DNA of 44,857 nucleotides. Source: a virus. Numbering within the stretch: the first letter of the stretch is position 1; every line of letters starts with the position of its first letter. Of the stretch, positions 27,739 through 33,939 are shown in pieces. The notes under the pieces were generated by a model. It was not told where the DNA came from and did no database searches. It saw only the letters and a program-made list of their open reading frames with translations. Made by a program: the position numbers and the translations under genes. Where the stretch lies: the UHGV virus genome UHGV-0186980. One strand, given 5' to 3'.

Positions 27739-28815
27739 TTATGCCCCCAAACCATCGGGGGCCATACTCTTAACTAATTCATTCATCTCTTTTACCGTCT
27801 GCTCAAACCGCTCCTTTTCAAGTTCGACTCCAATCCCTTTACGGCCAAGGGCTGCAGCAGCTTTCAACGTTGAACCCGACCCCATAAAGAAATCGGCAAC
27901 AATGTCTCCCGGTCTACTGCTGGCACTGATAATCTGCTTCAGCATGTCGGCCGGCTTTTCGCATGGGTGTTTACCCGGATAGAACTGGACCGGCTTATGT
28001 GTCCAGACGTCCGTATAGGGAACAAGCGCTGAAACGGTGAAATGACGCCGGAGAGATTTGTATTCCTCCAGCAATTCCGAATATTTGCGGTTCAGAGAAT
28101 GCCAGGTTGCTACCAACTCATGATGAGGTTGGGCCAACTCTTTTTTCTGATATTTCTCCGCGGCGACCATTGAAAATAGCGCCTGCAGTTTTAAATAGTC
28201 GCTTTCGTTTGGCAGCTGCCATTGGCTTATGCCGAACCAGTGCGACACCATGTTTTTTTTGCCGGTAGCGTCAGCTATCTGCTTAGCACTGACGCCAAGC
28301 GAATCTCGGGCATTACGGAAATAAGATATTAGCGGCGCCATCAAATGCTGCTTAAGGTCATTGCTCTTTTCCGTATTTCCATCATCTTTTGGCTGATACG
28401 GTCCCTGATAATGCCCAGCAAACAATATTCGCTCTGTAGCTGGAAAATAGGACCTTAAACTCTCTTTATTGTAGCCGTTCCACCGTCCCGATGGCTTCGC
28501 CCAAATGATGTGATTCAGTACGTTAAACCGACCCCGTACTAAAATCTCGATATCTGAGGCAAGCCGATGACCAGAGAACAGATAAAGGCTACCGTTCGGC
28601 TTTAAAACACGCCAGAACTGCGCCAGACACATATCAAGCCAATTTAAATAGTCTTCATCCCCTTCCCATTGGTTGTCCCAACCATTCGGCTTAACCTTGA
28701 AATACGGCGGATCCGTAACTATCAAGTCAATAGAGTTATCAGGGAGGGACGGAAGATATTGCAGGCAATCAGCGTTGATTAATTCAGCACTGGATATTTT
28801 TACAGTGTTTTTCAT
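27739..28815 (-). CDS. DNA N6-adenine/N4-cytosine methyltransferase (beta-class, DPPY then FxGSG)
   Basis: LIVTDPPYF motif IV precedes FFMGSGST motif I. Confidence 0.8.
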   Translation of the reverse strand: MKNTVKISSAELINADCLQYLPSLPDNSIDLIVTDPPYFKVKPNGWDNQWEGDEDYLNWLDMCLAQFWRVLKPNGSLYLFSGHRLASDIEILVRGRFNVLNHIIWAKPSGRWNGYNKESLRSYFPATERILFAGHYQGPYQPKDDGNTEKSNDLKQHLMAPLISYFRNARDSLGVSAKQIADATGKKNMVSHWFGISQWQLPNESDYLKLQALFSMVAAEKYQKKELAQPHHELVATWHSLNRKYSELLEEYKSLRRHFTVSALVPYTDVWTHKPVQFYPGKHPCEKPADMLKQIISASSRPGDIVADFFMGSGSTLKAAAALGRKGIGVELEKERFEQTVKEMNELVKSMAPDGLGA

Positions 28816-29236
28816 AGATCAGTAAGCAGGACTCTGTTAGGCTCACTATGCTTTTGCGCTAAAGCAGTGGGCCCTGGTTCGCTTGTGACCTTCTACATGA
28901 GCGAATGGCTGGTCGGGTGCTCCAACACCCACCAGCCGCCCATTTTCACAGCAGAAAGCCCCCCGCTAAGGGAGGCGCTTATAACATCCGAATTGATAGT
29001 CCGATAAACCTGCCATTACGAGCTGCGTTAAAATTAACTGGCAGCGTTCGCGCGTCAGATGTGTGTTTTACGAAATCTCCCCAACCGTAGCTGGCTCATC
29101 ACTCAACTCATTTAAAACCGCTCGCGCCAATTCCGTCATATTATCTTGATTTAGCATGTCTTTTTCCTTTTTTAACAGTACGACACACAGATAACTCTGG
29201 TTGCTAACCCCATCAAGAAGTAATTGCAGAAGGCAT

Positions 29237-29262
29237 AAAAAAACCCCGCCGTAGCGAGGTTA
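29237..29262 (-). terminator. tR'-like intrinsic terminator downstream of Q-like gene
   Basis: Minus strand CCTCGC-TACG-GCGGGG followed by 7 U; upstream AT-rich promoter-like TTGCAA element. Confidence 0.5.
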
Positions 29263-31128: not shown

Positions 31129-33059
31129 GCAACCTCCCTCTGCTCAGGTATGCACATTTCCGGTAAATTTGCCCTTACCAGTGCTTCAGCGAATGGTGGA
31201 GGAACAGCGTTTCCACAACGAGCGACCTGTTTATCTTTTGCATAACGATTACCGCGGTAATCGCGATCAATAATGTAATCCGCAGGAAATCCCTGTGCCC
31301 TGTATAACTCATGAGGCTGCAGCATGCGCATTCCAATATCGATAATCTGATATTTGACGCCGTAGATCGTCACCAACCATTCATTTGGGTTTTCTCCACA
31401 GTACGTTTCAAGGAAGGTTCTAACTTCTCCTACATGTTGGCCACCAGCGGTGATCGTAGGCATTGGGTCGTCCAGTGGCTGCCCGTCCTGGCATGTACCA
31501 CGAAACTTGACCAGATGAGAGGCAACAACAGCGTGATGATCTACTGTCGTCACAGAATGCGTCGGTTCATCAAGGCCGATCCCCGGCCCGGTATAATTTC
31601 CACCGTAGTGCTTTGCCAGGAACGCGCTGACCGTCGCAAACTTATTGCCGCCGGCGGTGACCGTACCCAGGGGATTATTTAGCTTCAGTACCCGTGGCTC
31701 CTGGCCTGGACGTTCACCGTAGCCCATCTGGATCAGAGTAGGCGTCACCAGTTGCGATTTACCGCCGCCACCAGCTGTGATTGTTGCGCTGGGCTCATCC
31801 GCCCGGTGCCCGATGCTGGCGCCAAACTGGCGCGCGATAATCGGAGCGACGACACAGGCGCGCGACTCTTTCAGGACGGTGTGAACGGGTTTATTCAGCG
31901 GCCGTGGTTTCGCCTGATATTCACTACCACCGTTTCCCGCGAGGAACGGGATCAGACCCGCCTCAACAATCCCCAACGCATGCCCATTCCCGCCCGGGCG
32001 CTTAGACGTGCCGGCGGTTACCGTCGGTAACGGTTCGGAGACTGGCTGCCCGGTGGCTCCAGTTCGGAATTTTGTCAGATGAGGTACCGCAATTGCGTAG
32101 CCGTGGGTTTTCGTAATCGTTTGTAGCGGATCGTCCAGCGCCTGTCCTCTGAAACAATCATATTTGCCTTTAGTGGTCGTATGGTTGCACTTCACGATGA
32201 ATGGCGATGCGCTCTCAATAACGAAGCGCTGTATGCCGCGCGCAATACGTTTCAGCGTATTCTCTGCCAACGGTTTTTTTCGGTCGAAAATAGACTTCGC
32301 CGGAATATCCCAGTCGATACACTCAGCAGCGGTTCGCCATGGCGCCAGTCTTCCGCTCTGTACTTCCAAAGATTTCGGATCCCCATGGGTTGGCGCTGGC
32401 CAGCGTACACTTTCACCGTCGCAGCGCATCACCATAAAGAAACGTTTGCGGATGGTCGGCGCCCCGAAGTCGCAGGCGCGCAACTCGCGGTAATCGATGT
32501 TGTATCCCAGCCCCTGAATCAAAGACAAAGCATGCTCGCTACCTGGCGCGATGGACAGAAACTCGCACACCTCCGCAAGCGCCGGATGATCCGGATCAAT
32601 GCCGGTAGACAACATGCCAACGAATGCAGCAAACGTTTCTCCGGTACGCGCCGGATCCGGGCGCATCTCATCCTCCAGCAGCGGCCCCCAGGTTTTAAAC
32701 TCTTCGACGTTCTCCAGCATCATGACGCGGGGACGCTTCGCCAGCGCCCAGCGAATGACGACCCACGCCAGTCCCCTGATCTCTTTTTTTACCGGTTTCG
32801 CGCCCTTGGCTTTGGAGAAGTGCCGGCAATCCGGGCTGAACCATGCGAGACCTACAGGGTTTCCGCCCGTCGCCGCCACCGGATCGACATCAAATACAGA
32901 CTCACAGTAATGCAGCGTATCCGGGTGGTTCGTCTTGTGCATGGCAATGGCGTTTTCATCATGGTTGATGGCGATGTCAACACTGCGCCCAATCGCCAGC
33001 TCGATTCCGGTAGACGCGCCGCCGCCGCCAGCAAAGTTATCAACGATAATCTCACGCAT
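31125..33059 (-). CDS. DNA cytosine-5 methyltransferase with ~6 repeated TRD-like T(V/I)TAGG motifs (possibly multispecific)
   Basis: Motif I DNFAGGGG, ENV (MLENVEEF), RxR (TIRKRFF), C-terminal GNAV; motif IV reads FSPDCRHFS; start refined to MREIIVD. Confidence 0.75.
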   Translation of the reverse strand: MREIIVDNFAGGGGASTGIELAIGRSVDIAINHDENAIAMHKTNHPDTLHYCESVFDVDPVAATGGNPVGLAWFSPDCRHFSKAKGAKPVKKEIRGLAWVVIRWALAKRPRVMMLENVEEFKTWGPLLEDEMRPDPARTGETFAAFVGMLSTGIDPDHPALAEVCEFLSIAPGSEHALSLIQGLGYNIDYRELRACDFGAPTIRKRFFMVMRCDGESVRWPAPTHGDPKSLEVQSGRLAPWRTAAECIDWDIPAKSIFDRKKPLAENTLKRIARGIQRFVIESASPFIVKCNHTTTKGKYDCFRGQALDDPLQTITKTHGYAIAVPHLTKFRTGATGQPVSEPLPTVTAGTSKRPGGNGHALGIVEAGLIPFLAGNGGSEYQAKPRPLNKPVHTVLKESRACVVAPIIARQFGASIGHRADEPSATITAGGGGKSQLVTPTLIQMGYGERPGQEPRVLKLNNPLGTVTAGGNKFATVSAFLAKHYGGNYTGPGIGLDEPTHSVTTVDHHAVVASHLVKFRGTCQDGQPLDDPMPTITAGGQHVGEVRTFLETYCGENPNEWLVTIYGVKYQIIDIGMRMLQPHELYRAQGFPADYIIDRDYRGNRYAKDKQVARCGNAVPPPFAEALVRANLPEMCIPEQREVA

Positions 33060-33939
33060 GGACCGCCCCCTGCATGCTGCTGACCAGCCCACCAGCAATG
33101 GTTATGATCTCGTTAATTGATGTGCGCTCCAACCACAGCTGGTTGATGTGGGCTTTCAACTTGTTCTGCTGGGACTCTTCCAGATCGCTGGCCCCTTCAA
33201 CCTGCCCAAATGCCAGATTGACTTCCAGCGGCCAGATGCGAGATTCAATAACATGCTCGACCACTGGTTTAGCAGCCGGAGTTGGAGCCACATCCTTCGC
33301 CGGAAATAACAGCCCAGCGGCAAACTGCGCCAGCGCCATACTTGCGCGCCCTTTCGCTTCCAGCTCTGCGCGATCGATATAGCTAAAACGCTCACCGCGC
33401 CAGGCCTTATCGAATACCGCAATGGCCCCCGCAAAGAAAGCGCTGGTGGGTTTCTGCTTTTCGTCGGCCGGCACAAACCATACAGGGAGATCGAATCCAA
33501 TACGACCACGAATAAACATGATGTGATCGGCATCTTCCGGCCACCATGTTTCACTTGTTGCTGACTTAACGAGGTAAATGTAGCGACCACCCTTTTCACG
33601 CTGCTCGGCGGTATATTTCATGATATGAGTCATGCCAGTTATGGCTTGTTTTTTATGGTACTGCGAGCGGCTGTAGGGCGGATTAGCAAAGGCTGCACCG
33701 CCGAGTTCAGCCAGTCGCCCAGACCAGTCCTGTGTTAATGCATTATCTTCAGCGGTATACCATGCCGGGCATTTCGCATTGCTGTCGTCAGCAAACAGAT
33801 CCAGAACAAGAGGACCAAATAACGCATTAATTCCCCAGAACAAAAGATCAGGTGTACGCCACTGATCACCAACTTCTTTTAAGTAATGGGACGGTGCAGC
33901 GCGCATTGCTTCCAGCGATTCACAATATGCATTCATCAC
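33052..33939 (-). CDS. Phage Dam-like DNA N6-adenine methyltransferase (NPPY)
   Basis: WRTPDLLF...NAKCPAWYTAEDNALTQDW...FANPPYS. Confidence 0.75.
   Translation of the reverse strand: MMNAYCESLEAMRAAPSHYLKEVGDQWRTPDLLFWGINALFGPLVLDLFADDSNAKCPAWYTAEDNALTQDWSGRLAELGGAAFANPPYSRSQYHKKQAITGMTHIMKYTAEQREKGGRYIYLVKSATSETWWPEDADHIMFIRGRIGFDLPVWFVPADEKQKPTSAFFAGAIAVFDKAWRGERFSYIDRAELEAKGRASMALAQFAAGLLFPAKDVAPTPAAKPVVEHVIESRIWPLEVNLAFGQVEGASDLEESQQNKLKAHINQLWLERTSINEIITIAGGLVSSMQGAVHA

Follow-up and report, generated by a model that had tools for sequence, protein, structure and literature searches.

Three orphan DNA methyltransferases in a lambdoid prophage and a tandem repeat array in the cytosine enzyme

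Protective methylation by orphan, broad-specificity modification enzymes of temperate phages, which are expressed only on exit from the cell, has been described as a "Trojan horse" (PMC12707154), and in STEC (Shiga toxin-producing Escherichia coli) methylomes such prophage-encoded DNA methyltransferases (MTases) were inactive in lysogens (PMC6602927). The lambdoid prophage genome UHGV-0186980, analyzed here over its full 44,857 nucleotides (nt; "the window" in what follows), carries three MTase genes, i.e., one for a Dam-type N6-adenine enzyme, one for a C5-cytosine enzyme and one for a beta-class N6-adenine enzyme. A first-pass annotation had taken them for three orphan MTases, and this holds; they are of three different classes and intact, as the open reading frames (ORFs) are uninterrupted, the family scores lie far above the curated cut-offs and the catalytic motifs are readable; the best PADLOC match of each is a Type II MTase model (MTase_II for the Dam-type enzyme). 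There is a fair probability that all three are self-protective anti-restriction enzymes expressed only in lytic growth, in two waves, and that progeny DNA leaves the cell pre-modified. Both the phenomenon and the gene module are already known, and the module is routinely annotated. The unexpected element, and the one feature that merits follow-up, is an array of seven repeated units in the C5 enzyme.

Two adenine methyltransferases and their described relatives

M.EcoGI and M.EcoGII come from prophages of E. coli O104:H4 C227-11, the host element having been called a cryptic prophage. M.EcoGII methylates adenine in any context, in DNA as well as in RNA; no expression is seen in the lysogen, and constitutive expression is harmful (PMC5778455). 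Two reconstructed ancestors, Anc291 and SUPREM, are still non-site-specific (PMC11551740). The beta-class enzyme of the window is 77% identical to M.EcoGII, with 88% positives, over 349 amino acids (aa) with 2 gaps (M.EcoGII as given in Table S1 of PMC11551740, where SUPREM is described). Both are prophage-borne and of similar length (349 aa for M.EcoGII and 358 aa for the window enzyme), and the order of motifs is the same, i.e., DPPY (aa 34-37 in the window enzyme), a central target-recognition domain (TRD) and FxGxG (here FMGSGST, aa 310-316), with DPPY and FxGxG conserved between the two. The match to PF01555 (N6_N4_Mtase) covers aa 29-341 and reaches 146.8 bits against a cut-off of 26.7. 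On the other hand about 23% of the residues differ from M.EcoGII, the host is an enteric bacterium other than E. coli, the closest relatives of the window enzyme are found in Klebsiella and Kluyvera, and a small ORF located upstream of the gene in the M.EcoGII clade is truncated in the window. The enzyme is a full-length relative and probably an orthologue of M.EcoGII and, as judged from its sequence, a new member of the M.EcoGII clade. Its identity to the active ancestor Anc291 is 83.5% and that to SUPREM 69%, and as these ancestors are non-site-specific it falls within the range of sequences of enzymes shown to be non-specific; its homology points to non-specific methylation of adenines. The broad epigenetic masking of phage DNA that had been suggested for the three genes may, with a full-length relative of this kind present, be regarded as a reasonable reading. 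Sequence searches of the PDB returned generic MTase matches only and no structure of M.EcoGII.

Of the phage Dam family, T1 Dam, HP1 Dam and M.EcoVT2Dam act on GATC, and M.EcoVT2Dam is listed as GATC-specific (PMC6602927). The Dam-type enzyme of the window shares with this family the catalytic NPPY motif (within FANPPYS) and a score at the equivalog level (NCBIfam TIGR01712, phage_N6A_met, 197.2 bits vs. 97.05). The Pfam domain PF05869 is matched at 152.6 bits (cut-off 28.1) over aa ~17-198, and the gene, as that of VT2-Sakai Dam, belongs to a lambdoid nin region. With homologues from Stx2 and Stx2c phages the catalytic domain shares about 70% identity. A close relation to M.EcoVT2Dam was expected, but the identity is only 33%, and GATC specificity is therefore not claimed; the earlier label "Dam-like" should not be read as GATC-specific. 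The window enzyme also has an additional C-terminal region of about 95 aa (aa ~200-294, encoded by 33052-33340) without a Pfam match, and it differs from the phage Dam family in being joined in an operon with a C5 MTase. The orthologue in E. coli MEI4O1-23 is 444 aa long, and in Klebsiella phage 5 LV-2017 a similar tail precedes a C5 "methylase." A PDB sequence search gave no match for the Dam-type enzyme. The gene itself is present as first annotated, but the GTG at 33939 was probably not the correct choice of start; in two independent assemblies the protein is called as 294 aa, which makes the ATG at 33936 more likely.

The cytosine methyltransferase and its repeat array

The C5 enzyme is twice the usual length. 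PF00145 (DNA_methylase) is matched at 77.8 bits (cut-off 22), and the motifs FAGGGG, SPDC, ENV, TIRKR, RMLQPHELYRAQGFP, and GNAVPPP follow in canonical order. The annotated start at 33059 is correct, homologues being 644 aa long and beginning with MREIIVDNF. In motif IV one residue is inserted between Pro and Cys (SPDC), which is common to 138 of the 150 representatives listed; this "SPDC" subfamily comprises 2590 clusters at 50% identity (E<1e-30), and close homologues of the enzyme account for at least 8000 clusters in Enterobacteriaceae. In AlphaFold2 models made with 142 diverse homologues the catalytic core has a predicted local distance difference test score (pLDDT) above 90, Foldseek matches the core with a probability of 1.0 to 3g7u (the MTase of prophage CP-933R), DNMT1, M.HhaI and M.HaeIII, and the catalytic domain is predicted to have a Class I MTase fold.

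Between motifs VIII and IX lies an array of seven tandem units of 32-48 aa, which can be aligned with each other and have the consensus L-D-x-P-x-x-T-[IV]-T-A-G-G, a hydrophobic strand and a Gly-rich turn. The number of units per enzyme ranges from 1 to 9 among the 150 listed "SPDC" representatives and from 1 to 10 in relatives, and close homologues fall into length classes of 605, 644, 660, 680, and 690-695 aa that differ by the in-register loss or gain of whole units; the 605-aa class is short of one unit, and the classes of 680-695 aa have an additional unit of type H. Many residues of the units are invariant across 50 homologues. In a comparison with the E. coli orthologue the ratio of non-synonymous to synonymous substitutions (dN/dS) was 0.021 in the repeats and 0.043 in the N-terminal core, with dS being saturated; the array is as constrained as the core and is under strong purifying selection. 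Single-linkage clustering collapsed all units into one component, from which it follows that they are homologous. As this gave no separation, unit types were defined by Louvain clustering, and among 366 relatives about 11 types make up 207 distinct architectures, nearly all of which end in A-B. The array of the window reads E-F-G-D-C-A-B. Its pLDDT was 27-46 with the 142 diverse homologues, which is why no structural claim is made for it; the model of the enzyme from 50 close homologues had a mean pLDDT of 41.8.

Among Bacillus phage MTases, M.SPRI, M.Rho11sI, M.H2I, and M.Phi3TI resemble the C5 enzyme of the window in several respects. All are phage orphans with a conserved catalytic core and several short tandem modules, similarly spaced, between motifs VIII and IX. 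The TRDs of the Bacillus enzymes are about 38-50 aa long. In the GenBank sequences SPR has three and rho11s and H2 have four tandem [SP]-x-T-[ILV]-[TSN] modules; this signature and the hydrophobic strand are common to both groups, as is the variation of modules between related enzymes. The differences are that the window enzyme has seven units instead of three or four and that its motif IV is SPDC and not SPC, i.e., it belongs to a different subfamily. A hidden Markov model built from 373 units gave no significant match to SPR, rho11s or H2 (best score 3.5 bits, no better than shuffled controls), and the resemblance is therefore limited to pattern and position. No description of a repeat array or of multispecificity in C5 MTases of enterobacterial phages, and no paper on the present family, was found in the literature. 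One may speculate, with considerable doubt, that the 644-aa enzyme and the "SPDC" family, found in prophages of Proteobacteria and Firmicutes, are multispecific cytosine MTases of a cassette type, in which the variable upstream units (E, F, G, D, C, H, I, K, and others) would serve as independent recognition modules and the constant A-B pair at the end would be a structural adaptor.

Gene order around the methyltransferases

The minus strand carries most genes of the prophage, including those of all three MTases (Table 1). An identical contig was found in two independent public assemblies, the gene calls of which match those used here, and the MTase genes are identical across several independent samples. 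The nearest relatives of the genes in the MTase region are from Klebsiella, Kluyvera, Enterobacter, and Citrobacter, and not from E. coli. The Dam-type gene comes after the replication gene in the gene order and its stop overlaps the start of the C5 gene by 8 nt. These two genes do lie, as first described, on the nin side, in the early-right operon upstream of the antiterminator gene Q; the beta MTase gene, on the other hand, is part of the Q-dependent late operon, and the three can therefore not be treated as one late/nin group. Beyond the lysis cassette come, in this order, a low-GC stretch, an HNH endonuclease gene and the terminase, head and tail genes.

Table 1. Positions of the methyltransferase genes and other features in the window
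Feature	Position	Strand	Basis or remark
Dam-type N6-adenine MTase, 294 aa	33052-33936	-	PF05869, TIGR01712
C5-cytosine DNA MTase, 644 aa	31125-33059	-	PF00145; motifs readable
Seven-unit array in C5 MTase (aa 308-571)	31347-32138	-	Unit alignment; candidate target-recognition modules
Beta-class N6-adenine MTase, 358 aa	27739-28815	-	PF01555
HNH endonuclease	22049-22504	-	PF01844; directly upstream of small and large terminase subunits
Lysis cassette: holin_8, holin_3_7, GH108 endolysin, Rz-like spanin	25444-26918	-	Pfam matches, gene calls
HicA toxin	27059-27241	+	PF07927
HicB antitoxin	27298-27711	+	PF15919
Second terminator-like hairpin	28958-28976		Overlaps original stop of small conserved ORF
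Small conserved ORF, cut short in the window	28966-29157	-	Comparison with L009, E. coli, Stx2 phage
tR'-like intrinsic terminator	29242-29261	-	8-bp G+C-rich stem and T7
Antiterminator Q, 232 aa from internal ATG	29351-30049	-	PF06323; gene call
DUF968 protein (YdfU-like)	30070-31128	-	PF06147, 244 bits; weak HNHc_6 match
Small ORF			Between replication gene and Dam-type MTase
Replication protein	34190-35053		HTH_36 and Phg_2220_C domains
Ant/Rha protein	35231-36025
cro, then cII/YmfL-like gene			Between cI-like repressor and Ant/Rha in gene order
cI-like repressor	37037-37732	+
Rv2179c-like 3'-5' exonuclease	41157-41729	+
Integrase	41984-43165	+

Downstream of Q the order is an AT-rich pR'-like promoter region, the tR'-like terminator (about 90 nt from the Q stop), the small conserved ORF, the second hairpin and the beta MTase gene, which is the first sizeable gene behind these signals. 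With the holins on its other side the gene does lie between the Q/tR' region and the lysis genes as originally described, and the position is the one expected for a gene that would be switched on only by Q antitermination, insofar as timing can be read from anatomy. The same interval had been compared to the slot that stx occupies in Shiga-toxin phages, and in this respect the comparison fails. In the Stx2a phage Stx2_EH2201 the order is Q, small ORF, MTase (78% identical to that of the window), tRNAs and stx2AB, and in VT2-Sakai it is Q, tRNAs and stx2AB, the MTase being simply absent; it follows that the MTase accompanies stx and is neither a substitute for it nor an alternative occupant of the slot. 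Homologues of the M.EcoGII type are found directly after Q in E. coli and in Stx2a/Stx2c, SfV, mEp460, and cdtI phages. The beta MTase gene is thus a conserved first late gene that is able to coexist with stx, and the Q-holin interval is a cargo hotspot. What remains of this interval, from the beta MTase gene to the holins, is taken up by hicAB, encoded on the opposite strand behind a sigma-70-like promoter (TTGATT-16-TATAAT, 27001-27028); the pair is an independently transcribed moron and, in this phage, the cargo of the interval in which stx is found in Stx phages. No tRNA genes were found in the window.

The small conserved ORF that separates Q from the M.EcoGII-type genes encodes 63-65 aa in E. 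coli, the Stx2a phage and L009. In the window a CAA to TAA change at codon 30 (29068-29070) shortens it to 29 aa with the remainder still in frame, and the 29-aa version is also called in two independent assemblies. In relatives there is a weak winged-helix likeness (DprA_WH, E=1e-4, just under the cut-off), and the product could be a controller or partner of the beta MTase.

The module, i.e., rep-Dam-C5-(Ant)-DUF968-Q-small ORF-beta MTase-holin, is also present in the Citrobacter phage phiNP and in a prophage of E. coli MEI4O1-23, where the gene order is identical to that of the window at a nucleotide identity of 73-75%; hicAB is found in the window only. The C5 enzyme of phiNP has 6 units (575 aa) compared to the 7 of the window, being without units 2 and 5 and having one extra terminal unit. 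phiNP is a plaque-forming phage (PMC6456863), and the papers on it do not mention the MTases. The locus survey covered 80 loci from a collection with one genome per species. The Dam-type gene adjoins the C5 gene in about 36 of these 80 species-level loci, DUF968 is next in about 27, and an M.EcoGII-type gene is located 2.3-4.7 kb downstream in 9. All three MTases occur together in 7 loci, including those of Enterobacter wuhouensis, Klebsiella spallanzanii, Mixta, Buttiauxella, and Kluyvera. As the same order is seen in phiNP, in E. coli MEI4O1-23 and in 7 of the 80 loci, the arrangement is not a chance co-occurrence. C5 loci without the Dam-type gene are other prophage modules, with YqaJ, RecT, integrase or another N6_N4 MTase as neighbors. 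The C5 family is also found in the early-left part of prophages, beside YqaJ, RecT or integrase, at L016 (Citrobacter murliniae, 8602-12073), L019, L036, and L038, and at L016 a different N6_N4 MTase of 377 aa directly precedes the C5 gene; the C5 gene therefore moves between phage modules.

Elsewhere in the window, a stretch at 22700-25100, between the lysis and the HNH/terminase genes, has a GC content of 40-43% compared to about 52% in other parts. It holds small ORFs only, including a YnfU-like zinc-ribbon protein (23790-23960, plus strand); for its other ORFs no family match was obtained. The HNH endonuclease next to it is placed as in HK97-type packaging modules and is unrelated to the MTases. 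The early-left region (39471-41729, plus strand) codes for a DUF2303 (YfdQ-like) protein, a protein with a weak match to YfbR-like 5'-deoxynucleotidase, and the Rv2179c-like exonuclease.

Probable protection against restriction and other possible roles

If the three enzymes are self-protective, they would act in the following way. The Dam-type and C5 enzymes, translationally linked and encoded in the part of the early-right operon that runs from the replication gene to Q, would make up the first wave and act on replicating phage DNA. The M.EcoGII-type enzyme would form the second wave, and since its gene is located behind the late promoter and the tR' terminator it would be made only after Q antitermination. 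Shortly before packaging it would then modify adenines almost regardless of context, so that most restriction sites with an adenine (Types I, II, and III) would be blocked, while the tight late control would avoid the toxicity of genome-wide methylation in the lysogen. We infer the timing of expression, the specificities and the protection itself.

Such a role presupposes that the enzymes are orphans, and the statement in the first-pass annotation that no nuclease partner is visible was borne out. No restriction endonuclease family was matched in Pfam and PADLOC scans of the neighbors and of the window's other unassigned ORFs, the nuclease-like genes being DUF968, the terminase-side HNH endonuclease and the Rv2179c-like exonuclease, and no restriction endonuclease was found beside relatives of the C5 family elsewhere, where the neighbors are Dam, DUF968, Ant, YqaJ, RecT, integrase or another MTase. 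It is very unlikely that DUF968 is the partner of the C5 enzyme in a cryptic restriction-modification or addiction pair, in which case the latter would be no orphan; this is the reading least likely to be true. The C5 stop overlaps the DUF968 start (ATGA, 31125-31128), suggesting translational coupling, the DUF968 protein has a C-terminal HNH-like Cys/His motif (CxxC...HH...CxxCH) in addition to its weak HNHc_6 match, and the two genes adjoin directly in 7 of the 80 loci. However, Stx2_EH2201 (as ydfU) and E. coli CX strains have DUF968 beside Q without any C5 MTase, Ant separates it from the C5 gene in E. coli MEI4O1-23 and about 20 loci, and more than 40 of the 80 C5 loci have no DUF968, which together show that DUF968 is not the restriction partner of the C5 enzyme and tracks with Q. 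It has no PADLOC match, and as its position just upstream of Q is that of NinG/Rap in VT2-Sakai and lambda-type nin regions, it may be a recombination or junction nuclease.

The MTases might instead mainly serve the phage life cycle or host take-over, the Dam-type enzyme controlling replication, packaging or expression, as at P1 pac, and the beta enzyme methylating host DNA or RNA late to reprogram or shut down the host. This is rather unlikely, but several observations are in line with it: orphan phage MTases may in many cases regulate replication cycles, and Dam methylation at pac is a requirement of P1 (PMC12707154), the Dam-type gene directly follows the replication gene, RNA as well as DNA is methylated by M.EcoGII (PMC5778455; PMC11551740), and an unrelated Stx-phage MTase, annotated as acting on DNA, methylates 16S rRNA and controls induction (PMC10810198). 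The latter was considered as one of the three genes and rejected; its gene is close to the integrase end and, as an MT-A70 enzyme, it is from another family and serves as precedent only. Three chemically different marks with broad or modular specificity, however, fit evasion better than regulation, and the genes are dispensable across related phages, as VT2-Sakai is without a post-Q MTase and many loci are without Dam or beta. It is highly improbable that any of the genes is a decaying passenger of a defective prophage without an active enzyme as its product. The premature stop in the small ORF that precedes the beta MTase gene and the so-called cryptic prophage of M.EcoGI and M.EcoGII (PMC5778455) would agree with decay, but none of the three ORFs is shortened and none lacks a catalytic motif, the dN/dS of the C5 gene is 0.02-0.04, identical genes are seen in several independent samples, and the prophage has its full gene complement for integration, immunity, replication, lysis, packaging, and tail.

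A number of points weigh against anti-restriction as the role of the three genes. If it is GATC-specific, the Dam-type enzyme would add nothing in a Dam+ enteric host, and whatever its specificity it would duplicate the work of the beta enzyme. 5-methylcytosine (5mC) and dense N6-methyladenine (m6A) would expose the DNA to Type IV systems (McrBC, McrA, and Mrr), and protection is therefore conditional. No strong Shine-Dalgarno sequence precedes the beta gene, and the late enzyme may be impaired by the nonsense codon in the small ORF if that ORF is a needed partner or regulator. The RNA methylation by M.EcoGII and the 16S rRNA target of a different Stx-phage "DNA" MTase, both mentioned above, belong here as well. 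Overall the locus represents an ordinary, known anti-restriction strategy with one interesting enzyme, and the value of the analysis is mainly one of clarification.

The anti-restriction role predicts phage particles with m6A at most adenines and with 5mC, and such modification matters for phage host range, for nanopore and single-molecule real-time (SMRT) analysis of induced viromes, and for the cloning or restriction of the DNA. If the doubtful proposal that the units of the C5 array are independent modules were true, the enzyme would be the richest natural multispecific cytosine MTase known, and a single polypeptide would guard against at least five cytosine-dependent restriction specificities. 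The 207 architectures would then record an arms race of whole-module swaps, and the multispecific principle of the Bacillus phages would extend to enterobacterial phages on a much larger scale. With natural C5 variants that are one unit apart, each module could be matched directly to its motif by comparison, and the family would provide a natural library of small, portable modules for 5mC recognition.

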